From sequence record PV191315.1: a DNA stretch of 64,000 bases, one strand, 5' to 3'. The notes under the pieces are model-generated. The model was not told the DNA's origin. It did no database searches and worked only from the letters and a program-made list of their open reading frames with translations. Shown piece after piece: positions 26,936-40,809 of the stretch; within the stretch, counting starts at the first letter, position 1, and each line of letters begins with the position of its first letter. Made by a program: the position numbers and the translations under genes. The DNA is from Escherichia phage vB_EcoM-P3322.

Positions 26936-27619
26936 ATGGAAAATATTAAAATCGGAGTGGGTGTTATCACTGTAGGTGTCCGTCCACTTAAAGACTACCT
27001 TGTAACAGATCCACGTGCAGATTTTCGAGTATTCAACGATCCAGATCGTAAAGGTGTAGCTTATGCCAGGAATGAACTTATGCACCAGTTTTATGAAGAA
27101 GGTTATGATTATTGGTTTATTTTTGACGATGATTGCTACCCAGTCATGGAGGGATGGGAAACATACTTTGTAGATCAAGCTGTCTCTGGAGGATGGGATT
27201 TCTTTGGTATGCCGGAGTATTTCAAAGATAAAGTTGTTGGAAGCAAAGGAGAAGTTATTCTCTGGGAACTTGCAATGTGTCAATTTGCAATGTATTCTCG
27301 TGCCGTTGTTGAGAAGATGGGTTATTTCCGTCCTTACACTCACGGTTATGGTTTTGAAGATGCTGAATGGGGACACCGTTTGCAAGCTGCTGGTTTGAAT
27401 CATGGTATTCAGGCAACACCTTGTCCACTTCGTATCATGGCTTATATCCACCCAGACGATGTTTTTGGAAACAATCCTATGCCTTTTGCTAACCTGACAA
27501 AAGAAGAGAAAGAGGCTGCTATTGGGATTAACTGGGAAGAATATAAAGCATCTTTAGAGGATATTAAAAATGGGAAAATCCGAATTTCCTATGAGGAGGC
27601 ACTAGCACATGTCAAATAA
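26936..27619 (+). CDS. glycosyltransferase, GT-A-like (tentative)
   Basis: 227 aa; DxD-type YWFIFDDDCYP after a beta-strand. Confidence 0.35.
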   Translation: MENIKIGVGVITVGVRPLKDYLVTDPRADFRVFNDPDRKGVAYARNELMHQFYEEGYDYWFIFDDDCYPVMEGWETYFVDQAVSGGWDFFGMPEYFKDKVVGSKGEVILWELAMCQFAMYSRAVVEKMGYFRPYTHGYGFEDAEWGHRLQAAGLNHGIQATPCPLRIMAYIHPDDVFGNNPMPFANLTKEEKEAAIGINWEEYKASLEDIKNGKIRISYEEALAHVK

Positions 27620-28559
27620 AAAATGGTCTAAACTAAAAATTGATGCAAAACCTCACAGCGGTTGTGACTATCATCGTATTGTTATACCATTTAACAACAA
27701 CAATAATATTCAACCTAAGAAAGATGTTGTTGTGTTTAACCGTATCCACTCTAAAGGTGCAGAATACGTTTTATCTTTGAAACGTCAAGGTGTTAAGGTT
27801 GTTGTAGACTTAGATGATTTTTACCAACTTAATCCAGAACATTATTTAGCAAGTCTATACGAGTCAAACACTCATGCTATTGTAGCTATGGTTAAGCTTG
27901 CTGATGTGGTTATTGTGACTACGGAATATTTGGCATATAAGATCCGTCACTTAAATAGGAATGTTGTTGTGATCCGAAATGCACTTCCTTTTGATAGCGG
28001 ACAATTCACTTTGTCAAATGATCGTTCATCCGGTACCCCTGTTGTATGGGCTGGCGGTGCTAGTCACGAACCAGACTTACGACTAGTCTCTAATACTTTC
28101 GATGATGAACTTCTTACTATTGCGGGATATGAAGCATCACAAAGCATCACGGGACAAGAGTGGATTAAGATTCGCAGAAATTTACCAAATGCCAAATATA
28201 AAGCCGCTGTAAAAGATTTAGATAATTACATGAGTGTTTACGAAAGTCATGCTATTGCTATAGCTCCTTTGGTAGATAATGATTTTAATAATTGTAAAAG
28301 TAATCTCAAAATCCTGGAAGCTGGAGCAAAAGGTATTCCAATTGTTTGTTCTAAGGTATTACCTTATTTTAACCCTGTAGATGCTCGCGCTGTTGCTTAC
28401 GCAGAGAATAAAGCAGAATGGCATTACGAAATTGTTAAGCTTCTTCGCAATCCAAACTATCGGGAAGATCGTGGCTTGTTCTTGGCTGAACATGTTCGAA
28501 CACATTATAATCTGGCAGATGCAAACGAGTTGCGACGCCAGGTTATTGAAAGTTTGTAG
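27609..28559 (+). CDS. glycosyltransferase, GT-B fold, paralog 1
   Basis: 316 aa; C-terminal NNCKSNLKILEAGAKGIPIVCS resembles the GT4-type EGFGL..LEAMA.G.PVI motif. Confidence 0.45.
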   Translation: MSNKKWSKLKIDAKPHSGCDYHRIVIPFNNNNNIQPKKDVVVFNRIHSKGAEYVLSLKRQGVKVVVDLDDFYQLNPEHYLASLYESNTHAIVAMVKLADVVIVTTEYLAYKIRHLNRNVVVIRNALPFDSGQFTLSNDRSSGTPVVWAGGASHEPDLRLVSNTFDDELLTIAGYEASQSITGQEWIKIRRNLPNAKYKAAVKDLDNYMSVYESHAIAIAPLVDNDFNNCKSNLKILEAGAKGIPIVCSKVLPYFNPVDARAVAYAENKAEWHYEIVKLLRNPNYREDRGLFLAEHVRTHYNLADANELRRQVIESL

Positions 28560-28566
28560 GTGAAGT

Positions 28567-29511
28567 ATGGGACAAATAATTCTTGACAATCGTAACGGAA
28601 TCAATTATAGTGTCTGCGATTTCCATAGGGTAGTGCTGCCTTACTCAAGGCAGTTCTCTTCACAACCTAAACACAACGTTTTCGTTTTTAACGGGGTGCC
28701 AACAAAAGGTAAAGAGGGCTTTTTAGCCCTTAAAAACCTAGGCTTTAAAATGGTTATGGATTTGGATGACTCTTTAGTTATTCCAAAAGGACACATGTTA
28801 GAAGGTATTTTTGAATCAGGTATTCGTGAACATTTAAAATGGTTTTTAGAGCACAGCGATCTCGTTACAACTACGACACCTGCTTTGCAAGTTGAACTTT
28901 CACAATACAATGATAATGTGCACATAATCCCTAATGGACTTCCTTACGATGAAGGTCAATTTGTGTTGACCCGTGATCGCTACTCCAAAACTCCATTAGT
29001 CTGGGCTGGAAGTGAAACACATAAACAAGACTTGGCTATCTTGCCCGATTTTGGTAAAGATCTTACAATATGTGGTTTTCGTAGGGATTCTGAAGTTTTA
29101 AGTAGTCGTGAATGGTCTGTGATCAGAGAAAATGTAGCACCAACTTGTGTTTATGAAGGTGTAAGACCATATGCCAACTACATGGAATCTTACGATGGTC
29201 ATCAAATCAGTCTTGCGCCATTGATTGATAACGTGTTTAATAATGCAAAAAGCAATCTTAAAATTCTTGAGGCAGGTGCTAAGGGTTTACCTTTGATCTG
29301 TTCTCCTCGTGAGAATTATCATACACAAGAGTTTAAAGATTTGTTATTCTTTGCTGAAACACCTTCCGAGTGGAAAGATATTACGGAATACTTATTAAGT
29401 GCTCCCGATGTTTGCATGGAGAAAGGATTAGCATTAGCTAAGTATGTCAGGACTCATTATCACATTGATGTGTTGAATGAGCGTCGTAGACTTTTATTTG
29501 AGGAGCTATAA
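28567..29511 (+). CDS. glycosyltransferase, GT-B fold, paralog 2
   Basis: 314 aa; NNAKSNLKILEAGAKGLPLICS; collinear similarity to 27609..28559 (CD(Y/F)HR(I/V)V.P, VVWAG/LVWAG). Confidence 0.45.
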   Translation: MGQIILDNRNGINYSVCDFHRVVLPYSRQFSSQPKHNVFVFNGVPTKGKEGFLALKNLGFKMVMDLDDSLVIPKGHMLEGIFESGIREHLKWFLEHSDLVTTTTPALQVELSQYNDNVHIIPNGLPYDEGQFVLTRDRYSKTPLVWAGSETHKQDLAILPDFGKDLTICGFRRDSEVLSSREWSVIRENVAPTCVYEGVRPYANYMESYDGHQISLAPLIDNVFNNAKSNLKILEAGAKGLPLICSPRENYHTQEFKDLLFFAETPSEWKDITEYLLSAPDVCMEKGLALAKYVRTHYHIDVLNERRRLLFEEL

Positions 29512-29801: not shown

Positions 29802-31580
29802 GTGTCGCACATTATAACTAAATATGGATTTGATGTTGATCTTAGCAAGGAAGGACATACAGGTTGTCCGCGCTGCATGAAAAATGGCAAGGATCGCTCT
29901 CGTAATAACCTGATGGTTTATGGATTAGATTCTAATGGAGAGCATAAAGGTGCTAAGTGCTTTGCGTGTGAATACACTATTCCTAGCGTAGAATGGTTAC
30001 GAGAAAATGGTGAAGTTTTAGAAGAAGAGGAGGAGATTGTGGGTTCGGAATTTAATAAACAGATTCATCGTAAAATTGTTCAAGAAACATCAACCAACCC
30101 ACGTGGTTATCGAGGCATTAAAGAAAAAGTTTCATCTTTCTATGGTGTTCGTTATGAATACCGCCAGGAAGGGGATCAGATGGTAGTAGAAAGTTGTTTA
30201 TATCCAACTACTATCGGTAAAGAATTAGTTGGTTTTAAGCGTCGTATTCATCCTAAAGATTTCAGTAAACCTATTGGTCAAGTAGGTAAAGATGTAGATC
30301 TTTTTGGACAAATTCGTTTTGCAGACCGTTCTCATACTGTGGTAATTACAGGTGGTGAACACGATGCTCTGGCAGCTTATCAAATGCTGTCTGAAAACTT
30401 GGACAACAAATATGAACTTCCAGCAGTAGTTAGTGGCACAACTGGTGAAACCAGTATGTATAAACAAGTTCAGGCACAATATCCTTTCTTTGAAAAATTT
30501 AAGAAGATTATTGTTTGCATGGATAATGACAAAGCAGGTAATGAGGCATTTGAAAATATTGTTAAGGTGTTGCCTCGTAACAAAGTCTACCGTATGCAGA
30601 TGGATCTTAAGGATGCCAATCAGTATCTGGAAGAAGGTCGTGCAAAAGATTTCGTAAAAGCTTTTTGGAGTGCTCGTCTATACACCCCAGCAGGTGTTTA
30701 TGCTTCTAATGTCTTGTATGAAGCTGCATTAGAATGCTTGGAATCCAAGATGATTACCTTGCCTCCTTTTATGCGTGTTGCTGCAAATATGCTGGGTGGT
30801 GGTTTAGTAGAGGAAGAGATTACAGTTATCCTGGCGAAGACCAGTATCGGTAAAACTTTGATGGTGAACGAGATCACCAAACATATTATTGTTGCGCACC
30901 CAGAACATACCCTAGGTATTCTGTCCTTGGAAGCAACTTATAAGAAATATTCTCGTAACCTGTTGTCCTCGTTCCTGCATATTCCTCTACACAGGAAAAC
31001 ACCGGAAGAGAAATTTCAAATCTTGGAAGAGAATAAAGAAAAAATCCTAGATTTTTACGAAAGAGAAGATGGATCACCACGTTTTTATGTGTGTGATGAT
31101 CGTGGAGCAGATGTGGAGTCTATCAAAGAAAAAGTTTTGGAGATGATCATCTATTTTGGAGTAACAATTCTTGTTATCGACCCTTATTCTGATTTGCTTT
31201 CTGGTATGGATGTTCAAGCCCAGGAAGAGTTAGCAACATGGTTGAAGCGCATCATGAAAGAGTATGCTATAACTATTATTGTCATCTCACACGTTAAGAA
31301 ATCGGCTAATGGTGGCAATGAACACTTAACAGAGGACGATGCAATGGGTAGTAGTTTCTTGGCTAAAGGTGCTGGTATTACCTTGGCTTTGGAACGAGAT
31401 AAAGCCGCTGAAGACCCTGTAGAACGCAATACGACTCATTGCTTTATCCTAAAAAACCGTGAGTTCTCAGAAACTGGTCCGGCAGGGCAGTTTTACTATG
31501 ACATTAGAACTGCAACTCTGCATGACAAAGAGCAGTATTTCAACAATCCTGCTAATTTGCCTACGGATAGCAACTATTAA
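29802..31580 (+). CDS. bifunctional DNA primase-helicase (T7 gp4-like)
   Basis: N-terminal zinc ribbon CPRCMKNGKD...CFACEY; TOPRIM-like VVITGGEHDALAAYQ and CMDNDKAGNEA; helicase Walker A AKTSIGKT and Walker B-like LVIDPY. Confidence 0.7.
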   Translation: MSHIITKYGFDVDLSKEGHTGCPRCMKNGKDRSRNNLMVYGLDSNGEHKGAKCFACEYTIPSVEWLRENGEVLEEEEEIVGSEFNKQIHRKIVQETSTNPRGYRGIKEKVSSFYGVRYEYRQEGDQMVVESCLYPTTIGKELVGFKRRIHPKDFSKPIGQVGKDVDLFGQIRFADRSHTVVITGGEHDALAAYQMLSENLDNKYELPAVVSGTTGETSMYKQVQAQYPFFEKFKKIIVCMDNDKAGNEAFENIVKVLPRNKVYRMQMDLKDANQYLEEGRAKDFVKAFWSARLYTPAGVYASNVLYEAALECLESKMITLPPFMRVAANMLGGGLVEEEITVILAKTSIGKTLMVNEITKHIIVAHPEHTLGILSLEATYKKYSRNLLSSFLHIPLHRKTPEEKFQILEENKEKILDFYEREDGSPRFYVCDDRGADVESIKEKVLEMIIYFGVTILVIDPYSDLLSGMDVQAQEELATWLKRIMKEYAITIIVISHVKKSANGGNEHLTEDDAMGSSFLAKGAGITLALERDKAAEDPVERNTTHCFILKNREFSETGPAGQFYYDIRTATLHDKEQYFNNPANLPTDSNY

Positions 31581-32113: not shown

Positions 32114-32908
32114 TTGAGCAAGTTGAATACACTTGATCAATATTACACTAACCCCGCTTATGCGGGGTTCTTATGTGATAAGATCAAAGAAATTTTTGGA
32201 GAGGAAGCTAACTACGTAGAACCATCTGCGGGAGAAGGAGCTTTCTCTTCTTGTTTTAAAAACATAACTTCTTTTGATATTGACCCTAAGTTTGAAGATT
32301 GTATTGAGGCAGATTTTTTAGCTCAATCTGTTGAGTCTGTTGGCAGTGTAACTGCTTTTGTCGGTAATCCTCCGTTTGGAAAAAATGCTAGTCTTGCCAT
32401 TAAGTTCTTTAACCATTGTGCTGAAATGTTGGATAACGAAGGTGGTATTTGTTTTATCTTGCCTCGCACATTTCAAAAAATCTTTTTTGCACACAAACTA
32501 AATCCCCACATGCATCTTCTTTACGAAGAAGAATGTCCAAAAGGATCTTTTATTCTTCATGGGGAACCTTGGGATGTTCCTTGTGTATTCCAGATATGGA
32601 TTAAACGCAACGAGAAGCGTTCTCCCGTTGTTTTAGGAGAGAATAGACTGTTCGTATTAGGTAACAGTAAAGACTACGATATAGCCGTTAGGAGAGCGGG
32701 AGCAAGTGCAGGTAAAGTGTTATCAGAAGAAGATTCTTTATCTGAAGCATCTACCTACTTTTTAAAAGCCTTGACTTCTGATCTTAAAACACGTATCATT
32801 GAGGCTTACCCGTTACTTAAAGCTGAAGCTAGTAAAACTGCGGGAGTAAGAAGTTTAAGTTTAAAAGAACTTCAGTGGGTTCTGGAGAACATTAGAAAGG
32901 AGGAATAG
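32114..32908 (+). CDS. DNA N6-adenine methyltransferase-like protein
   Basis: 264 aa; catalytic-type FVGNPPFGKN; N-terminal YYTNP..AGFLCD consistent with AdoMet-binding region; TTG start after AAGGAGG. Confidence 0.5.
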   Translation: MSKLNTLDQYYTNPAYAGFLCDKIKEIFGEEANYVEPSAGEGAFSSCFKNITSFDIDPKFEDCIEADFLAQSVESVGSVTAFVGNPPFGKNASLAIKFFNHCAEMLDNEGGICFILPRTFQKIFFAHKLNPHMHLLYEEECPKGSFILHGEPWDVPCVFQIWIKRNEKRSPVVLGENRLFVLGNSKDYDIAVRRAGASAGKVLSEEDSLSEASTYFLKALTSDLKTRIIEAYPLLKAEASKTAGVRSLSLKELQWVLENIRKEE

Positions 32909-35505
32909 TGAGTAAGTTTACATGGGATATTGAAGCAAACGGATTGTTGAATAATGACACTATTGATTATTTAGCTAGTCCTTATCGTCTCAAAGACACA
33001 TTTCAAATGCACTGTATTGTCTTAGAGAACCATGAAACAGGAGAAATAGTAGCTTTCCACGATGGCCCTAAATACATCTTTGATGGGCGTCCTTATGAAG
33101 AGTCAGATGGTAAATACACATATGTTCTTAAAGAGTATGTGGCGCAAGATTACACACATTTTCAACTAAAAGATTTCCCAGATTTTATTAATCATGAAGG
33201 TTATTTTAAAGACAAGCCTGAATATCTGGTTGAAATGGCTGTGGCTCACAACGGTATCAACTACGACTGGTTGGCTACAAAACTGTTTTATGGATTAGAT
33301 TACAGTGTTAAATATAATACGTGGGGCAAAAATAAGGTAAAACTTATTGACTCTTTGATTTTGAGTAAAGTGTTAAACCCAGATAGAAAGATTGAGGGCA
33401 AATCAGGACATAGTTTGGCAGCACTTTCTCGAAAAGCAGGTGGTGATGTAAAAATAGATTTCCGTAAAGAGATTCCAGAAGAAGATCGATTTAAGACTTT
33501 TGCTGCGGATATGCTTTATTACTGTATCTATGACAACAAAGCCAATACGAGCGTATATAATTACCTTATGGAAGAATGGGGTGATTATGATAAATGGGAA
33601 GGTCCATTTGAACTTGAACAACGTGTAGCAGACATTATTACACGCCAGGAACACCGTGGGTTTGCTTTTAACATGAAACAAGCAGAAGAGAACCTTGCTT
33701 TTTTGGATGCAGAAATGGAGCGTCTTCGTTTACTCGTTGAGCCTATTTTGCCACCTAAACCAGCAACAAAAGGTTATCTTAAGGCTTTTATTCCACCTAA
33801 GTTGCAAATTAAAAAGAACTTAGAGCCAACTAACCATATGATCAATTTTGCTAAGAAACACGATGGTCATTTGGAAGAGAGGGATGGCGATTGGTGGTTA
33901 GTTATGTTGGGGAAAGAGTGGAAACTGCCAGTTGCAGCAGATGAACCTCTATGTGATCCTAACATCCCTGCAACATTGAACGATACAACCCATATTAAAA
34001 ACTGGCTTGTAGGATTAGGTTGGGTACCGTCTGAATATAAAGATAAAGACTTGACTCTTAAATCTGGCACCAAGATTAAAAAGAGCGAGGAAGAACTTCA
34101 GAAAGGTATTCGAGCTTACGTTGAGCAAACTCTATCTTCTAATTTTTGTCAGGATCGTTGTGATCATCTGGAGTGCACACCGGAAACCCTGGAAAGGAAG
34201 ATTCAAGAGCGTATAGCAAAAGGTAAAGGTCGCGGTCTTAAAGTATTGACTAACCCATGTTTTACCAAAGGTCAGGAAAAAGAAATTTGTCCTAACCTGC
34301 AAGCTTTGGGTGAGAAGTTTCCTTATGCTACACAGATTGTAGAATACTTAACGTATAAGCATCGTAGGAACTCTATTTTAGGTGGCGGTGCTGATTGGGA
34401 AGAAGACGAAGAAGATCAAGAATACGATAAAGGTTTCTTAGCCGCAGTAAGGGCGGATGGGCGTATTCCTACCCCAGCCGCTACATGTGATGCTGCAACC
34501 TCTCGTATGAAGCATAGATCTGTAGCTAATATTCCTCGTGTCACATCTTTGTTTGGATGGGAGATGCGTAACTTGTTTGGTGTAGAAGTTCCTAAATACT
34601 TCCAGATCGGCTACGACTTCGACTCTTTGGAAGCAAAAATTGAATCACACTACTGTTGGCGGTACGAGCCGGAGCCACACGAATATTGTAACGCTCTGTT
34701 GTTAGAGAAACCTAACGATGTTCACACAATGATGGCAAAACGTATCACTGAAACTATTGGACGTAAATTTGAACGTAGTCCTGCTAAATCTGTTAAGTAT
34801 GGTATTACCTATGGTGCACAAGCCGACAAGGTTGCTAAAACAATTGGTAGCGATAAGTTTACAGGTCAATTGGTGTTTGATGCTTTCTGGGAAGCTGCAT
34901 TCCCATTGGCGCGTCTTAAAGAACGTTTAAACGATTTCTGGGTTAAGACTGGTAAACAATATGTTTTGGGTATTGACGGTCGTAAGGTTCCTACTCGTTC
35001 TGCTCACGCGATTCTTAACTCTCTGTTCCAAAGTGGTGGGGTTATCTGTGCTAAACGTGCAATGGTTATTTATGACGACATGATCGAAGAAGAAGGACTA
35101 AGTGTTGACTTCTTTAAAGATGACTGGAAGAATAAAGACTTCGTACAACAAATGATTGCATATCACGATGAAGCCCAGCTTGAAGTTTCTCGTAACCTTG
35201 TAGAATTCAAATGGTTTTCACCTGAATCGTTAGGTTGGAAGAAAGTGGACGATCCTGAAGAACAAAAGAAAATTGATAAAGAATGCCTTGCTAAAGTTGA
35301 AGAATGGAAGCATAATAAGGAAAAAGAGACGGGGCAAATTTGGGCTAACATTCATGAATCTCCCAAAGGTGGATGGTTTACAGCTTATAGTCGAGCAGGA
35401 GAACTTGCTGCTTTAGCTGTTACTAAAGCCGGAGAATTCTACAATCTTAATGTTCAGCTTACTGCTGGATATGATGTGGGTAACTCCTGGGCCAGTTGTC
35501 ACTGA
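32908..35505 (+). CDS. family A DNA polymerase with 3'-5' exonuclease domain
   Basis: Exo I FTWDIEANGL; motif B RSPAKSVKYGITYGAQ; motif C IAYHDEAQLEV; GTG start after GGAGGAA. Confidence 0.8.
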   Translation: MSKFTWDIEANGLLNNDTIDYLASPYRLKDTFQMHCIVLENHETGEIVAFHDGPKYIFDGRPYEESDGKYTYVLKEYVAQDYTHFQLKDFPDFINHEGYFKDKPEYLVEMAVAHNGINYDWLATKLFYGLDYSVKYNTWGKNKVKLIDSLILSKVLNPDRKIEGKSGHSLAALSRKAGGDVKIDFRKEIPEEDRFKTFAADMLYYCIYDNKANTSVYNYLMEEWGDYDKWEGPFELEQRVADIITRQEHRGFAFNMKQAEENLAFLDAEMERLRLLVEPILPPKPATKGYLKAFIPPKLQIKKNLEPTNHMINFAKKHDGHLEERDGDWWLVMLGKEWKLPVAADEPLCDPNIPATLNDTTHIKNWLVGLGWVPSEYKDKDLTLKSGTKIKKSEEELQKGIRAYVEQTLSSNFCQDRCDHLECTPETLERKIQERIAKGKGRGLKVLTNPCFTKGQEKEICPNLQALGEKFPYATQIVEYLTYKHRRNSILGGGADWEEDEEDQEYDKGFLAAVRADGRIPTPAATCDAATSRMKHRSVANIPRVTSLFGWEMRNLFGVEVPKYFQIGYDFDSLEAKIESHYCWRYEPEPHEYCNALLLEKPNDVHTMMAKRITETIGRKFERSPAKSVKYGITYGAQADKVAKTIGSDKFTGQLVFDAFWEAAFPLARLKERLNDFWVKTGKQYVLGIDGRKVPTRSAHAILNSLFQSGGVICAKRAMVIYDDMIEEEGLSVDFFKDDWKNKDFVQQMIAYHDEAQLEVSRNLVEFKWFSPESLGWKKVDDPEEQKKIDKECLAKVEEWKHNKEKETGQIWANIHESPKGGWFTAYSRAGELAALAVTKAGEFYNLNVQLTAGYDVGNSWASCH

Positions 35506-35523
35506 TCTAACGTATTGTTTTAT

Positions 35524-35543
35524 AAGGGGCTTCTGCCCCTTTA
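35524..35543 (+). terminator. weak terminator/attenuator hairpin
   Basis: AAGGGGC-TTCT-GCCCCTT stem-loop followed by TATAGG; short T-tract only. Confidence 0.3.
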
Positions 35544-35554
35544 TAGGAGAAGAT

Positions 35555-35746
35555 ATGGGTTACGATTTAGATTGTCTTGGTATGCCTTACCTACCAGATG
35601 AATTTGAAGGTGAAGAAGAACGTGAATGGGACGATGGGGATATCCGTTGTTGGTCTTGTGGTAAAGATATGTCTTATGAACAACATATGCACAATGATGG
35701 TTTCTGCATACATTGTTATAATGAAATTGATCTGGAGGAAGATTAA
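35555..35746 (+). CDS. small acidic Cys-rich zinc-ribbon-like protein
   Basis: Track ORF 35450..35746; start moved to ATG 35555 after AGGAG; CWSCGKD...CIHCYNE. Confidence 0.45.
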   Translation: MGYDLDCLGMPYLPDEFEGEEEREWDDGDIRCWSCGKDMSYEQHMHNDGFCIHCYNEIDLEED

Positions 35747-35923: not shown

Positions 35924-36142
35924 ATGCGTAAATTAGTGAGCTTTAATGTTTCAATTCTTGTTGATGAACAAAATGAAGATGTTATTAAAGGTCTTGCAAA
36001 TAAGATTGCAGGTGGAATGACGGAAGCTGAAGTGTGGGAAGAATGTGCTCGACTTTATGAGGAAGGTGTTATTGAGGTCTTGGGAGATGAGATTAATATG
36101 GACGATATTGTTAAAGTAACTGTGGAGCGTATCAATGACTAA
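35924..36142 (+). CDS. hypothetical protein
   Basis: Track ORF 72 aa; SD AAGGAGAAAAC. Confidence 0.5.
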   Translation: MRKLVSFNVSILVDEQNEDVIKGLANKIAGGMTEAEVWEECARLYEEGVIEVLGDEINMDDIVKVTVERIND

Positions 36143-36728
36143 ATCAAAACAAATCAATATTGCCAAAGAAATTCTTACCGTATTAAAGATCGCTGATCCT
36201 AATTCTGTCTTGGCTGGCGGTGCTGTTCGTGATTGGCGTATTCTTGATATTGCTGGACGTGATCTGGATTTCTATACATCCCTTCCTGCACATCGGACTG
36301 AAGAACAAATACAAGGATTAATTGCATCTGCTTTAATGGGAACCAATATTCGTAAACTAGGAAACAAAGAGGCTTCTGACAATTATGAAGGTGTTACTGG
36401 TCTTAAACACGTTTTTGAGTTTGAACGTGATGGTCAGCTTTGCAACCTTATGATTATGGAACCAAGCGTAATGACAACCTTTCTAAATGAGTTCGATCTG
36501 TCCATCTGCCAGGCTGCATTTGATGGGAAGGACTGTTATTATTCTAAAGATTTTGAAACAACCTTGGAAACAGGGATCTGCTTCTTGCACAAAGATGTTA
36601 GAGAAGATGCCAAACATGTTATTAAAATTGCTACACGTTTCCCATATCTTCGTTTTGTGAAAGAGGTTAAGGTTCCACGTCCACCTCAAGTAGATACCAG
36701 ATTGGAAGAAGATGATATTCCTTGGTAA
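36135..36728 (+). CDS. minimal nucleotidyltransferase of the CCA-adding/poly(A) polymerase head-domain type, with SSB-like C-terminal tail
   Basis: 197 aa; LAGGAVRDWRILDIAGRDLDFY matches the GGxVRD...D.D catalytic signature; C-terminus LEEDDIPW resembles the SSB tail DDDIPF. Confidence 0.5.
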   Translation: MTKSKQINIAKEILTVLKIADPNSVLAGGAVRDWRILDIAGRDLDFYTSLPAHRTEEQIQGLIASALMGTNIRKLGNKEASDNYEGVTGLKHVFEFERDGQLCNLMIMEPSVMTTFLNEFDLSICQAAFDGKDCYYSKDFETTLETGICFLHKDVREDAKHVIKIATRFPYLRFVKEVKVPRPPQVDTRLEEDDIPW

Positions 36729-36773: not shown

Positions 36774-37166
36774 ATGACTGAACGTTCTAAGATAGCTGTT
36801 GAAACTGTTTATGGAAACTATACCAGTTTGACACTAGTTGAGAAAAATGTTGTAGGTCTTGACAACTCTTTTTATTTTCAAATTTTGGTTATTCAAGGTG
36901 GAAACAAGAAGCTAACTGCTCGTGTTGAAACATCTGAAATAATTGAAACCACTGTTACAAACAAAGAATTCATTTCACTGCAAGATACAATCCGAAACGT
37001 TATAGACGAAGAAGGCAAAGCTGCCACAATTAAACTCGGAGGTTTCCCAGTGCAAATAGTTCATTTTCCTAATGGTGAAATTGGAGTTGGAATAGGTAAA
37101 GGTAAATACCTGTTAGAGCAAGATGATATGGAAAGACTCCGCTCTTTCTGTGCAAAATTAATGTAA
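36774..37166 (+). CDS. hypothetical protein
   Basis: Track ORF 130 aa; no obvious SD. Confidence 0.45.
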   Translation: MTERSKIAVETVYGNYTSLTLVEKNVVGLDNSFYFQILVIQGGNKKLTARVETSEIIETTVTNKEFISLQDTIRNVIDEEGKAATIKLGGFPVQIVHFPNGEIGVGIGKGKYLLEQDDMERLRSFCAKLM

Positions 37167-37182
37167 TGTAGAGGAGATAATA

Positions 37183-38070
37183 ATGTCCGTAATTAATACT
37201 GAAACTGATCGTAAAGGCAAAACCGTAACTTATGCAACTGGTATCGTAGACTACGTTAAACTGGATAAATTCGCTGAACCTAAAACTTTTCATTGGGAAG
37301 GAAAAACGATTGTTTCAACTCACCGAGCCTCTCTTGTTCTGAAAGAGAAAGGTGCTAAACCAGATGAGAAAGGTGTTTGGATTTCTCTTGGTGACATTGA
37401 ACTGAAAGAAGGTTATGAAAACCTGCAAGTCAAAGAAGGTGATAATTGGATCACTATTGAAAAAGGTGTAGAAGTAAGTATTGATATTGATCGCGTTGAT
37501 AATAAAGGCGGTAAAACTTACTACAATACTAAAAAATCTCGTATTACAGTATTGTCTACCGATGGTGTTCAGAAGTCTAACAAATCTTCTGGCAATAAAG
37601 GTTCCAACGATGCTGCTCCTAAGCAGTCCTATAAAAAACGTGATACTGTAGGTCTGGAAACTGGTCACGCAGTAAATGGTGCACTGGAACTGATTCGTAA
37701 TGGTGTTAAAGGCGATGCTTTCGATATCGCTGGGGTTGTTCAATCTGCAACTGTCACACTGAAATCTGAAATTGCTGAATCTCGTGGCGTTGATATTAAT
37801 GATTATGATCTTGGGGCATCTGTTGGTCACGCTATTCTCAATGCTTGTAAAGACCATACCATTAAGACTGTCTCTGTAGAAGATCTGATTGATTCTGCTC
37901 GTAAAGTTCTGGCTCTGTCTGATAAAGTTGCTGCTGCCATTCGTGGTTCCGCAGAACAGCCTAAGAAAGAAGAGAAGAAAGAAGTTAAGAAACCTGAACC
38001 ACAACCAGAACCAACTCCAAGTAATCAAGAAGAACCTCCAATGGACTTCGACGATGATATTCCATTCTGA
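37183..38070 (+). CDS. single-stranded DNA-binding protein-like, with E. coli SSB-type C-terminal tail
   Basis: 295 aa; last residues PMDFDDDIPF match the conserved E. coli SSB tip; Pro/Glu/Lys-rich linker before it; host-like optimal codons; SD AGAGGAG. Confidence 0.5.
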   Translation: MSVINTETDRKGKTVTYATGIVDYVKLDKFAEPKTFHWEGKTIVSTHRASLVLKEKGAKPDEKGVWISLGDIELKEGYENLQVKEGDNWITIEKGVEVSIDIDRVDNKGGKTYYNTKKSRITVLSTDGVQKSNKSSGNKGSNDAAPKQSYKKRDTVGLETGHAVNGALELIRNGVKGDAFDIAGVVQSATVTLKSEIAESRGVDINDYDLGASVGHAILNACKDHTIKTVSVEDLIDSARKVLALSDKVAAAIRGSAEQPKKEEKKEVKKPEPQPEPTPSNQEEPPMDFDDDIPF

Positions 38071-38102: not shown

Positions 38103-38132
38103 AAAAGGGAACCTTTGCGGGTTCCCTTTTTT
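38103..38132. terminator. bidirectional rho-independent terminator between convergent early/middle and tail modules
   Basis: GGGAACC-loop-GGTTCCC hairpin flanked by AAAA upstream and TTTTTT downstream, between plus-strand stop (38070) and minus-strand stop (38134). Confidence 0.7.
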
Positions 38133-38133
38133 A

Positions 38134-40809
38134 TTAGTCGTAATATTTCAAACCTGTAATGAACTTCGATCCCCAATCCGCACTTGCGGCGGTGAACGTC
38201 AACATCCAAGTTGTAGCTGTACCAGTGAAGACCTCTCGTTGCACAGTACCATCAGTGTGGTAAATGTCCACGCCAGTATGTCCATTCTTAGGAATAGTGA
38301 AGGTAACAGCACTGGTAGTGTCTCGTGCATAAGAACAAACAAATGGTGTCCCCGCCCAAACTGGATTTGTCATATCACCCATCTCAAGCTGTGGAACCCA
38401 AGCAATAAGACCTGCCGTACCATCTCCTGCGAAAGTGTCTGATCCACTTGCATTCAAAGCTATAATCTCATAGGTTATAGATGCTTGTTTGGCAACTGTC
38501 ACTTTGTGTAGAATTACACGATACCAACCATTCCCCATATCGATTATGTTTGCATCTGCACCTGTAAATGTTCCAGCTACAAGATCATAAGTCCCTTCGT
38601 TAATCTCATCTCCTGAAGTCAATTTGAGTTTCACTTTAGTGATCCCATCTGGCTTCAAGAATACGGATGCCGCCCAGTGCTTACCTGCTGTAATATCAGA
38701 AGCTGTATTCACTGCTGATAAAATATGTTGTCCTGAAGTTGTAGAAGGTGTTAACTTGTAAGTGTTAGCCGTAGTTCCAACCGGAGAGTTGATTGTTGAT
38801 GCTGTGACTGTCAAGTTCGTCTTCAACCACGGGGAAGCTGTTGTCAAGTTATTGTTGATAAAGATATGTGTACGGTTGGCTGCTACAACACGTCTACCTT
38901 GTGGAGTTGTACCAACATATTCTAAAGGTGCTACGGGAGCAGAACTCTCTGTAGGTACAAGGATATCTCCAGAAGCCCTGGCATAACGGTTACTCCTGTT
39001 GACCTTTACATCCGCCGGAATAGTTTCTTGCGTCAAATCATAATCCATCACAATCACCACAGCATTCACTGTGAGATAAGAACTATCTTCGGCAGTTACC
39101 ACACCTTGATAAGTTGCTCTACAACCGATACGACAACCTCCATCAGCAACCGCTGTAATAACGCCTGTAACAGGGTCAACTGTTGCTACCGTAGGGTCAT
39201 TAGAGAAATACTCAACAACCATACCAGGTAAGCTTGCTGCTCCTGTTGGCGTTATTTCTGCTACCATTGTTTGTGTTGTTCCTACATCCATCGCAGATAA
39301 GCTAGGGGTGTAAACACTCAATGTTGAAGCATATCCTCCAGAGGTATCTGATAAAGTTGTTCCTTCGGCGTTTAAGGCTGTCATACCTGCATCAAAACCA
39401 CCTTCTGCATGGAAAGTCATTAAACCAGTAGATGATATTGTCATGTTTGCAGGGGCAGAAGAAGTGTATTTAATATTGAAAAGTTTACCTCCTTCTGGGC
39501 TAACAGAATGTGTCAACTGTTTAGTTCCACCTACAATACAAATTCCTAAAGAATCTGTAGTTAAGCCAGTTGCCAGAATATCACCCGTAATCACGGAGCT
39601 TGCTATTGGTGTGAATTTATTATAGTTTAGACCGCTATTGAACAGATACGAGGCTTTCCCATCTTTCCAAATACCGGAATAATACATATCTCCATTATAA
39701 ACGAAAAAGGTTCCTTGATAACCTAATTGGTTAGTAACATCCATATTCAGCGTATGAACGCTTGTGAGCTTGTTTATATCCCAAGAACCAACTCCTTCAG
39801 GTTTAACTGGTTTTCCCACTTGGAGTGGATCTCCGCTCGCAGAATCATACCCCAAACCTAAGTTTGCAGTGTAGTTCTTACCAATAGCCCACAAGGAATT
39901 ATTGATCCCAACGAAAAAAGAGTGGCGGCTTGGTGGAAACTTCCATGTTGAGAAACCTGCTGCAAAGGTATCCAGTTTAGTGTAGGTTGTTTCTGTATTA
40001 GACCTAACATATAAGTAGTTTACTGTACCCGTGCCACCGGAGGTATCTCCTACAACTATTGTCTGGGAAACTGTATTGATGTAATCTTTGACATACACTG
40101 TTTCAGTAGCGGATATCTTAGCATTGACAAAAGCTGTTGTTGTGTTATTATTACCTGCTAAACCTTTACTAGCTCCACAAACACGCAAGGTTCCCACATT
40201 GTTGACATAAGAGCATTGGTTGTAACCTGCATCAAAAGCAACTGCTGCACTTGTTATCTGACGAGGAGTAGAAACTTCGTTAGTAGTACTTGCACCTAAA
40301 CTGCCTACTGTGTTTTGACCTGATCCATAAAGAACACCACTATTCATTAACCAGAGAGTGTTGTTATATCCTCCCTTAACCTCTTTAAGATTAGCTAAAG
40401 AGATAGTCCCTGTTATTACAGATGGAAAGCTGGTCCAAGTAGTTACACATGCGTCCGTACCACCTGCTGCTATAGATCCTACCAATCCTGCTGTCAATCC
40501 TGAATATTGCCATCCTCCACTGTTAGTTTTAATAACAAAACAACGATCTGCGGTAAACACATCCGCTACTACAGTAGAAGCCAAGTGGAAATTATTGAAT
40601 CGTGCACTACGAGTTCCATCTGCAATCTCACCAAAAAGGTTTGCGCCTTGAGTAAACAATCTACCATCATTAAGCAAAATTGCTAAACTGCTGTTAGAAT
40701 TACCAGCATTATCTGGGTAATCTAAAGTGATTACTTTTTTAACAATACCCGCTGGCAGAGGAACGACACCAGTGCTGGTCATAATAGTAAATATTGGAAT
40801 TGGAAACAT
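38134..40809 (-). CDS. tail fibre / receptor-binding protein (891 aa)
   Basis: Large Gly/Thr/Ser/Asn-rich beta-type protein at the distal end of the tail module; SD GGAGGG. Confidence 0.45.
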   Translation of the reverse strand: MFPIPIFTIMTSTGVVPLPAGIVKKVITLDYPDNAGNSNSSLAILLNDGRLFTQGANLFGEIADGTRSARFNNFHLASTVVADVFTADRCFVIKTNSGGWQYSGLTAGLVGSIAAGGTDACVTTWTSFPSVITGTISLANLKEVKGGYNNTLWLMNSGVLYGSGQNTVGSLGASTTNEVSTPRQITSAAVAFDAGYNQCSYVNNVGTLRVCGASKGLAGNNNTTTAFVNAKISATETVYVKDYINTVSQTIVVGDTSGGTGTVNYLYVRSNTETTYTKLDTFAAGFSTWKFPPSRHSFFVGINNSLWAIGKNYTANLGLGYDSASGDPLQVGKPVKPEGVGSWDINKLTSVHTLNMDVTNQLGYQGTFFVYNGDMYYSGIWKDGKASYLFNSGLNYNKFTPIASSVITGDILATGLTTDSLGICIVGGTKQLTHSVSPEGGKLFNIKYTSSAPANMTISSTGLMTFHAEGGFDAGMTALNAEGTTLSDTSGGYASTLSVYTPSLSAMDVGTTQTMVAEITPTGAASLPGMVVEYFSNDPTVATVDPVTGVITAVADGGCRIGCRATYQGVVTAEDSSYLTVNAVVIVMDYDLTQETIPADVKVNRSNRYARASGDILVPTESSAPVAPLEYVGTTPQGRRVVAANRTHIFINNNLTTASPWLKTNLTVTASTINSPVGTTANTYKLTPSTTSGQHILSAVNTASDITAGKHWAASVFLKPDGITKVKLKLTSGDEINEGTYDLVAGTFTGADANIIDMGNGWYRVILHKVTVAKQASITYEIIALNASGSDTFAGDGTAGLIAWVPQLEMGDMTNPVWAGTPFVCSYARDTTSAVTFTIPKNGHTGVDIYHTDGTVQREVFTGTATTWMLTFTAASADWGSKFITGLKYYD

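Follow-up and report, generated by a model that had tools for sequence, protein, structure and literature searches.

Class II CCA-adding enzymes hold the tRNA by means of their body and tail domains and choose the incoming nucleotide via the motifs B and D, with the RRD signature of motif B providing ribose recognition and the EDxxR signature of motif D acting as a protein 'template' for C and A. Standalone head domains are already known, as exemplified by the protein NP_344798.1 of Streptococcus pneumoniae (PDB 2la3, 191 aa), a 'CCA-adding enzyme head domain' that, like the nucleotidyltransferase (NTase) described below, stands alone but is bacterial and not viral; we know of no SSB-type tail on this protein. 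Among phages, small 'tRNA nucleotidyltransferases' have been described between the primase/helicase and polymerase genes of Autographiviridae, with an enrichment in Pectobacterium phages (PMC7693777), and toxicity in E. coli has been reported for Gp22, a 182-aa protein of the Klebsiella phage fHe-Kpn01 (PMC7291057). These Autographiviridae proteins (Pectobacterium phages PP47, PP81 and Q19; fHe-Kpn01 Gp22) resemble the NTase of Escherichia phage vB_EcoM-P3322 in being CCA-NTase-like, about 180 aa in size and encoded near replication genes, whereas an SSB-type tail as present on the P3322 protein has not been reported for them. Acidic docking tails on phage replication proteins are likewise already known from T7, in which the SSB gp2.5 and the primase-helicase gp4 dock on the T7 DNA polymerase through acidic tails that carry a terminal Phe (PMC12339929). 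In T7, the disordered acidic tail with its essential terminal aromatic residue is therefore present on an SSB as well as on a non-SSB enzyme, and the T7 PolA/gp4-type replisome is the same kind of module with which the NTase family travels. The locus of P3322 differs from this system in that the carrier of the tail is a predicted template-independent NTase and that its tip follows the bacterial SSB pattern (DDIP[FW]) and not that of T7.

The gene was analyzed within a window of 64,000 nt, which denotes the whole stretch of P3322 DNA under study, and the relevant features are compiled in Table 1. The initial annotation had described a 197-aa ORF with the signature GGAVRD...RDLD and the C-terminal sequence ...LEEDDIPW, and all of these elements were read directly from the DNA; the ATG start and the TAA stop codon were confirmed both by the ORF list and by direct reading. 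The start codon overlaps the stop codon of an upstream 72-aa ORF (ATGACTAA), and a GGAG sequence is located 8 nt upstream of the ATG, so that the two genes are probably translationally coupled. Since the NTase protein is 96-100% identical in about 64 deposited phage genomes, the gene can be regarded as real. The region is 98-99% identical to that of approximately 64 phAPEC8-like myoviruses (Phapecoctavirus, Stephanstirmvirinae), with vB_EcoM_ASO2A as the closest relative. The respective proteins are labelled 'putative tRNA nucleotidyl transferase / poly(A) polymerase' or 'nucleotidyltransferase' in GenBank, and the profile matches to PHROG 10174 (E 6.5e-63, aa 1-128) and PHROG 1614 (E 5e-11, aa 4-184) both carry the label nucleotidyltransferase. 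The identity of the protein as an NTase is thus already known at the level of annotation.

Table 1. Features of the NTase locus in the analyzed window of phage vB_EcoM-P3322
Feature	Position	Strand	Evidence or remark
T7 gp4-like primase/helicase	29802..31580	+	PHROG 239, 2.4e-164
Family A DNA polymerase (PolA) with 3'-5' exonuclease	32908..35505	+	Pfam DNA_pol_A, 1.4e-13; PHROG 17, 2.7e-111
72-aa ORF (ATGACTAA)	35924..36142	+	Stop overlaps NTase start; annotated CDS in ESCO25
Head-only nucleotidyltransferase CDS	36135..36728 (stop included)	+	PHROG match; AF2 model; class II CCA/PAP head fold
GGAVRD, aa 28-33, motif A glycines	36216..36233	+	DNA read directly
D43-L-D45 (of 'GRDLD'), two metal-binding carboxylates	36261..36269	+	Invariant in 151/151 family members
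E95, candidate third carboxylate, strand 90-98	36417..36419	+	Alignment and model
Disordered Pro-rich linker, aa 178-192 (VPRPPQVDTRLEE...)	36666..36710	+	Fall in pLDDT; variable among close relatives
C-terminal tip D-D-I-P-W	36711..36725	+	Kept across the clade
NTase stop codon TAA	36726-36728	+	Directly after DDIPW
130-aa protein (p130)	36774..37166	+	PHROG 16560; always between NTase and SSB-like gene in Stephanstirmvirinae-type loci
SSB-like protein, 295 aa	37183..38070	+	OB-like beta domain, helical domain, disordered linker, SSB tail
EPPMDFDDDIPF, SSB-like tail	38032..38067	+	Same 12 residues as at the C-terminus of E. coli SSB
Stem-loop terminator	38103..38130	.	Between convergent replication and tail-fibre blocks; closes NTase operon

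The assignment to the nucleotidyltransferases, which the initial annotation had deduced from the signature motif, was substantiated by HMM and structure searches that predict the corresponding head fold. The AF2 model of the protein (pLDDT 85.6) matched the head of class II CCA-adding enzymes as well as poly(A) polymerases, with CCA-adding enzymes as best matches and RNA 3'-end polymerases leading by a clear margin; alarmone synthetases and antibiotic NTases were among the weaker matches. In an alignment of 151 family members, the residues G28, G29, D43 and D45 are conserved to 100%, including both catalytic aspartates, and R32 and W34 to 96% and 99%, respectively, with motif A taking the family-wide form LAGGAPRDW. 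The column of E95, which we infer to provide the third carboxylate on a strand (residues 90-98) predicted by the model, contains E in 58%, D in 12% and N in 14% of the 151 sequences and is therefore acidic in only about 70%. The residues Q6, W34, Y84 and K164 are invariant within the family and are not common to CCA enzymes. The NTase is very probably catalytically active.

Beyond the head fold and motif A, which are shared with class II CCA/PAP enzymes (PDB 1miv, 3h37, 4wby, 3aql), the protein departs from this class in many respects. The absence of the usual body domains was correctly noted in the initial annotation: the NTase comprises 197 aa compared with 412 aa of E. coli Cca, the structural alignments span only about 150-160 residues of the head and neck while the targets measure 340-520 residues, and the family core of approximately 175 aa ends around residue 177 with no neck, body or tail region beyond. 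The score for the Pfam model PolyA_pol (PF01743) is 13.9 bits and thus below the gathering cut-off of 23; the best score among seven relatives scanned singly was 21.5 bits and the best E-value among 12 alignment members was 0.0011. Likewise, the NCBIfam CCA/PcnB models yielded 12-14 bits against cut-offs of 290-439, and hhalign aligned only 24 columns with E. coli Cca, all belonging to motif A. No conserved columns corresponding to motif B (RRD) or motif D (EDxxR) were detected in the 151-sequence alignment, in which F120-x-x-S123-I-C125 and H/Y161...K164 are conserved instead. The sequences 'FDLSICQAAFDG' and 'EDAKHVIKIATRF', which by eye had been taken for motif B and motif D, respectively, were dropped as neither hhalign nor the 151-sequence alignment supported them. 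A search of PDB sequences with the family profile gave nothing meaningful, the only entries being Cas12f and allophycocyanin at E > 0.02. The Pfam family PF26128 is listed for some homologues, but scanning returned no match to it and no mention of it was found in the literature. Further differences from the class II enzymes are an extra N-terminal helix, the family-specific invariant residues, an acidic core (pI 5.63, with a family median of 5.94), a viral-only distribution and the docking-type C-terminal tip. According to its sequence, the NTase alone would comprise neither the modules that hold a tRNA nor those that select the nucleotide. The MenT/AbiEii (DUF1814) NTase toxins are clearly weaker structural matches than the class II heads and have different motifs, and unlike in these systems no antitoxin partner was identified.

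An exhaustive profile search identified 1045 representatives of clusters formed at 50% identity with E <= 1e-3, of which 333 reach E <= 1e-10. Nearly all are proteins of 170-230 aa that stand alone and whose match covers the profile positions from about 1 to 177. Among 185,579 bacterial and archaeal species, each represented by one genome, only three matches were obtained, all located on MAG contigs and one of them 98% identical to the NTase. The NTase family is effectively restricted to viruses. A tblastn search with two family members returned the same 192 phage records only and no Autographiviridae, and no such NTase gene is present in the examined region of KP34.

In the window, the NTase gene belongs to a block on the + strand that begins with a helicase gene, the genes for aerobic and anaerobic ribonucleotide reductases, three glycosyltransferase-like genes and the primase/helicase gene, continues with a 143-aa ORF, a methyltransferase-like gene, the PolA gene and three small ORFs, and ends with the NTase gene, the 130-aa ORF and the SSB-like gene ahead of a terminator that faces the tail-fibre genes. 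In a scan for promoters and terminators, promoter-like sites were no more frequent than in shuffled sequence, and a single terminator was detected. Glycosyltransferase-like and nucleotide-sugar genes occur within a few kb of the NTase gene in this window as well as in rV5-like contexts. The phages phi92 and FKP3 (a Klebsiella phage) share the gene order PolA - NTase - p130 - SSB-like at an NTase identity of 36%.

The genomic company of the family was further evaluated with 80 IMG/VR loci that were dereplicated to 47 groups at 70% identity. Within six genes of the NTase gene, PolA (phrog_17) is encoded in 22 of the 47 loci, the primase/helicase (phrog_239) in 20 and at least one of the two in 30, these PHROGs being the same as those of the window's own polymerase and primase/helicase, although the loci share ancestry and such counts overstate the number of independent observations. 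A 5'-3' exonuclease (phrog_107) and HNH homing endonucleases were found at this distance in 8/47 loci each, and p130 occupies position +1 in five dereplicated loci. Additionally, the NTase gene lies a few genes from a DNA ligase gene in ICP1 and VnaP and directly after the 5'-3' exonuclease gene in a Zobellviridae vibriophage. On rV5-like contigs it resides among small early genes, and a third of the loci, including the rV5-like ones, lack a polymerase gene near the NTase gene. A tRNA gene is located within 8 kb in 8/47 loci. The 64,000-nt window contains no tRNA genes, and in a complete relative (DIJ07P2 assembly) 10 tRNA genes are situated at the opposite end from the NTase gene, all of them encoding their own CCA. 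The NTase gene would thus be an accessory of the phage T7-type DNA replication module, with observed linkage to polymerase and primase-helicase genes; this linkage may stem from joint expression instead of a functional or physical connection.

A second protein with an SSB-type end is encoded downstream of the NTase gene. The 295-aa SSB-like protein terminates in MDFDDDIPF, and its tail agrees with that of E. coli SSB in 12 of 12 residues, while 7 of the 12 codons differ synonymously; a recent transfer of this DNA from host to phage was rejected in view of these codon differences. Homologues of the SSB-like protein end in xP[FWY] in 98 of 120 cases, and all 98 have F as terminal residue. The likeness between this end and that of the NTase, to which the initial annotation had drawn attention, was confirmed: the window holds 255 ORFs with 50 aa or more, and the C-terminal pattern [DE][DE]x?[ILVM]P[FWY] occurs only in the NTase and the SSB-like protein, so that their similarity is not due to chance. 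No ORF of 40 aa or more in a complete 144.8-kb relative has an acidic xP[FW] end except the NTase gene. Like the E. coli SSB-Ct (...MDFDDDIPF), the NTase tip forms the very end of the protein behind a disordered linker and consists of acidic residues, I, P and an aromatic residue, but in comparison with the bacterial consensus DDDIPF it reads E-E-D-D-I-P-W, with W for F and with neither the MDF sequence nor an OB fold. Over the last 30 residues of the model the pLDDT falls from 78 over 55 to 42, residues 178-197 accounting for the range from 55 to 42, and the linker lies outside the family profile, most matches stopping at about position 177.

The initial annotation had made its interpretation dependent on the presence of the tail in relatives. 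Within the Phapecoctavirus clade all members down to 59% identity possess the tip, in the form DDIPW in nine of ten and DDSFPW in one of ten, and the preceding 12-20 residues differ in both length and sequence. The tip is specific to this lineage in comparison with the sister genus, since the syntenic orthologues of Justusliebigvirus end in ...NNEEFKI (phi92 gp158) and ...DDAWDDDKI (FKP3). It recurs elsewhere in the family: ends of the type [ILVFM]P[FWY] are present in 13 of 209 non-identical family members from at least eight lineages, with about 0.2 expected by chance for 209 members according to the amino-acid frequencies. Besides the Phapecoctavirus clade these lineages include P0018 (NDFPW), P0062 (PDDIPW), P0161 (SNDIPW), P0199 (DDGIPF), P0149 (KPIPF), P0076 (ESIPY) and L050 (NNIPF), and the nearest relatives of each tip lineage (25-68% identity) are devoid of the tip. 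Other family members show acidic and aromatic ends (EEFEF, WDEEF, SDDDF), and most C-termini are unrelated. The SSB-like or gp2.5-like proteins encoded next to the NTase at these loci terminate in ...DKDIPW, ...GDDVPW, ...GEDTPW or ...DLDAPF, and many primase-helicases have acidic residues and F at their ends.

Moreover, a survey of IMG/VR DNA encoding DDIPW followed by TAA, which by design covered TAA-ended and not TGA- or TAG-ended genes, yielded at least 120 occurrences, and 109 of those listed form the end of an ORF with 80 aa or more, falling into 25 protein clusters. Among the matches listed, these clusters comprise genuine SSBs (phrog_44, phrog_9002), gp2.5-like proteins (phrog_862), a DNA helicase (phrog_16) and several uncharacterised families. 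As the same end is found on SSBs, gp2.5-like proteins and a helicase, DDIPW is a normal, portable phage variant of the SSB tip. The combination of NTase and tip had been called unusual in the initial annotation; this view needs to be qualified, in that the NTase is already annotated and DDIPW directly before a stop codon is common, but it holds insofar as no report of an SSB-Ct mimic on a phage NTase was found in the literature.

Of the two functions suggested in the initial annotation, recruitment to sites that bind SSB tails is the one that we infer and favour. The tip is predicted to serve as a docking peptide, and this part of the proposal is reasonably probable. By analogy with other SSB C-terminal tips (E. 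coli SSB-Ct; T7 gp2.5 and gp4 tails), the terminal aromatic residue, the free carboxylate and the preceding acidic residues would dock in the pocket of those proteins that read the tail of the phage's own SSB-like protein. Because this tail is an exact copy of that of the host, the most probable receptors would be SSB clients of the host and/or the polymerase or primase-helicase of the phage. The terminal W, as opposed to the F present in 98/98 of the tipped SSB-like homologues, may entail a different affinity or a different receptor. Tethering on SSB-coated ssDNA would give the small acidic domain access to a 3'-OH that it could not hold by itself, and the NTase would then add untemplated nucleotides to this 3'-OH; at forks or recombination intermediates, the candidate ends are a DNA 3' end or the end of a transcript or RNA primer. 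That the enzyme acts on nucleic-acid 3' ends where DNA is replicated or repaired is conceivable, although this part of the proposal is somewhat doubtful. The composite reading of a tip-tethered NTase that adds untemplated nucleotides at SSB-coated DNA is put forward tentatively, its probability lying just short of even. The loci without replication neighbours and the incomplete conservation of an acidic residue at E95 count against it. Docking via the tip is not essential to the function of the family, since Justusliebigvirus lacks the tip and the C-termini of most members are unrelated to it.

The other suggested function, a minimal tRNA nucleotidyltransferase that repairs or rebuilds tRNA 3' CCA ends damaged by exonucleases or by host defences or toxins directed at acceptor ends and in which the tail would be incidental or regulatory, is in keeping with the CCA-adding enzymes as best structural matches, the CCA-like motif A, the GenBank annotation, the 10 tRNA genes carried by the phage and the existence of NTase toxins that modify acceptor ends (MenT, PMC11541572). 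It is nevertheless unlikely and was disfavoured by the analysis, because the motifs B and D and the tRNA-binding body and tail domains are missing, the core is acidic, the gene keeps the company of replication genes, and the tRNA genes are CCA-encoding, distant from the NTase gene in DIJ07P2 and rarely nearby in the dereplicated loci; in addition, many carriers are phages of about 45 kb with T7-type replication modules, and the host has Cca. A role of the tail as decoy or weapon, which would occupy the SSB-Ct pocket of host repair or defence proteins such as ExoI, RecQ, PriA, RecJ or Ung and block or nucleotidylylate these proteins, would mean that phage DNA is protected or host DNA metabolism shut down; we know of no class II-head NTase that modifies proteins. 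The host type of the tip, the clear selection of this phage for host-identical SSB tails and the patchy gain and loss of the tip, which resembles arms-race evolution, are compatible with such a role, as are the toxicity in E. coli of the small CCA-NTase-like Klebsiella phage protein (PMC7291057) and the anti-defence factor Gad2, a merely generic precedent for phage proteins with an NTase domain (bioRxiv 10.1101/2023.05.01.538930). This role is quite unlikely, however, as the tail alone would suffice for it, yet the catalytic residues are invariant, and as the gene in P3322 is tightly linked with replication genes and not with typical early anti-defence clusters. The PADLOC defence models gave no match for the NTase, the 130-aa protein or the SSB-like protein.

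The tails of E. coli SSB, T7 gp2.5 and T4 gp32 fold into the proteins' own DNA-binding clefts, and the acidic tail of the NTase could accordingly be an intramolecular autoinhibitor that mimics nucleic acid in its own substrate groove, the likeness to SSB being a by-product. The extension is indeed disordered and acidic, with five D/E among the last 12 residues, and many relatives possess acidic or aromatic ends other than IPW. Autoinhibition is very unlikely, however, in that an acidic tail would be ill suited to a core that is itself acidic and that D-D-I-P-W is exactly conserved while the rest of the tail varies; the occurrence of the same five residues at the ends of SSBs and a helicase points to a shared external receptor. 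A comparably low probability is assigned to a substrate other than a nucleic-acid 3' end, i.e. the nucleotidylylation of a small molecule or the synthesis of a nucleotide product in metabolism, DNA modification or signalling. In favour of this explanation are the small acidic domain with no recognisable nucleic-acid-binding module, the invariant residues that are not shared with CCA enzymes, the nearby glycosyltransferase-like and nucleotide-sugar genes, and the alarmone synthetases and antibiotic NTases among the weaker structural matches; it is opposed by the clear margin by which RNA 3'-end polymerases are the best structural matches and by the SSB-type tether, which makes most sense on an enzyme acting on DNA or RNA.

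Three aspects of these results appear to be new, namely that a widespread viral family fails the features of CCA enzymes beyond motif A and the fold, that this NTase family is linked to T7-type replication modules and that several of its lineages, including that of P3322, acquired an SSB C-terminal tip. The virus-restricted family of head-only class II NTases is large, with more than 1000 clusters at 50% identity. If the tip of the P3322 protein truly tethers the NTase to replication or repair proteins, the annotation of the family as 'tRNA nucleotidyltransferase' is misleading, and tail-dependent pull-downs would offer a direct handle on the targets of the enzyme. The NTase is a concrete and testable lead rather than a surprise. 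In a wider and rather unlikely reading, many virulent phages with a T7-type replisome would carry a template-independent NTase as replisome accessory, to which the SSB tip was added independently in several cases; tailing of DNA 3' ends or RNA primers could then shield these from SSB-recruited host exonucleases or defence sensors, and the outcome would be a new enzymatic activity at phage forks as well as a new use of the SSB-Ct code. The sequence data suggest that the SSB tip (DDIP[FW]) may be a portable docking code used on phage SSBs, helicases, the NTase and several uncharacterised proteins, and this bears on the ways in which phages connect to the SSB interactome of their hosts or compete with it.

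The SSB-like protein of the phage carries a C-terminal tail that matches E. coli SSB at every one of its final 12 residues, whereas seven of the 12 codons differ synonymously between the two genes. This combination means that the host-identical tail is held by protein-level selection, which implies that the phage protein would engage host proteins that are clients of SSB.

A comparison of the window and its relatives revealed two alleles at the C-terminus of the SSB-like gene. The stop codon directly follows ...DFDDDIPF in the window and in the related phages ESCO25 and FKP3, while the reading frame continues past DFDDDIPF into APIGLQYGRNFLHCF in Phapecoctavirus DIJ07P2 and in phi92 gp156. Approximately 20 of 120 SSB-like homologues, drawn from several lineages, bear a comparable extension, 15-17 aa long and of the form '[AS]P[ILV]GLQY...'. 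The extension would bury the tip, for which a free terminal carboxylate is required. In DIJ07P2, which has the extended allele, the head-only class II nucleotidyltransferase (NTase) is the sole ORF of the genome that ends in an acidic xP[FW] tip.

Positions of the features discussed (L numbers denote loci or contigs, mostly from IMG/VR)
Feature	Location	Remark
Three glycosyltransferase-like genes in tandem	window 26936-29511	immediately upstream of the primase/helicase gene
Small four-cysteine (zinc-ribbon-like) protein	63-aa ORF at window 35555-35746, within 35450-35746	between PolA and NTase
Final 12 residues of the SSB-like protein	window 38032-38067	
SSB-like C-terminal alleles	window 38044-38070; OZ035771.1 (L012, ~record position 39555, minus strand); L001 6026-6973	
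ICP1 NTase homologue	L008 4956-5369 (Vibrio phage ICP1 ORF223)	137 aa only
tRNA-Arg(UCU) near NTase	L031, L035, L038, L072, L092, L094	

The NTase family includes length variants in both directions. ORF223 of Vibrio phage ICP1 aligns to residues 4-127 of the window NTase; it retains the catalytic half, and the C-terminal third of the core is absent. A long subgroup of 290-400 aa (IMG/VR contigs L037, L051-L059 and L066; family proteins P0120 and P0139) shares the conserved end ...KFPDWxFxxxWEEAYK..., and the core is preceded by an N-terminal extension of 100-200 residues, the start of which may be overextended in some cases owing to naive ORF calling. The protein database assigns Pfam PF26128.2 to many family members (P0009, P0015, P0016 and others), whereas a scan of family members against the Pfam copy used here gave no PF26128 match, and a paper search did not find this accession in the literature. 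This NTase group may therefore already have a Pfam family of its own.

With respect to the genetic neighbourhood, tRNA-Arg(UCU) recurs at six of the eight loci with any tRNA gene within 8 kb of the NTase gene, which probably just mirrors the commonness of this tRNA in phages. The glycosyltransferase-like trio of the window was assigned to phrog_2456 and, twice, to phrog_7162, and one of the three genes weakly matched the beta-glucosyl-HMC alpha-glucosyltransferase family. In NTase-bearing rV5-like contigs, dTDP-sugar biosynthesis genes are located a few kb from NTase. These sugar genes may hint at glycosylation of DNA or of the surface. The four-cysteine protein represents a further conserved small acidic-tailed protein of the replication block: it terminates in an acidic run, ...CIHCYNEIDLEED, and its counterpart in a Justusliebigvirus-like contig (L017, ORF at position -2) ends in ...PHCHNEIELEEDDE.

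The DDIPW tip of the NTase was also detected on other proteins in the survey of IMG/VR DNA (L100-L219). The biggest cluster among the matches listed, with 40 of 109 ORFs, is a family of ~90 aa (example end ...APAAKETDDIPW) that gave no match in a PHROG comparison. Further DDIPW-ended proteins among these matches belong to phrog_2402, phrog_21342, phrog_3284 and phrog_33461, all of them uncharacterised. Along with the ~90-aa family, these proteins may be additional clients of the SSB-tip docking code.
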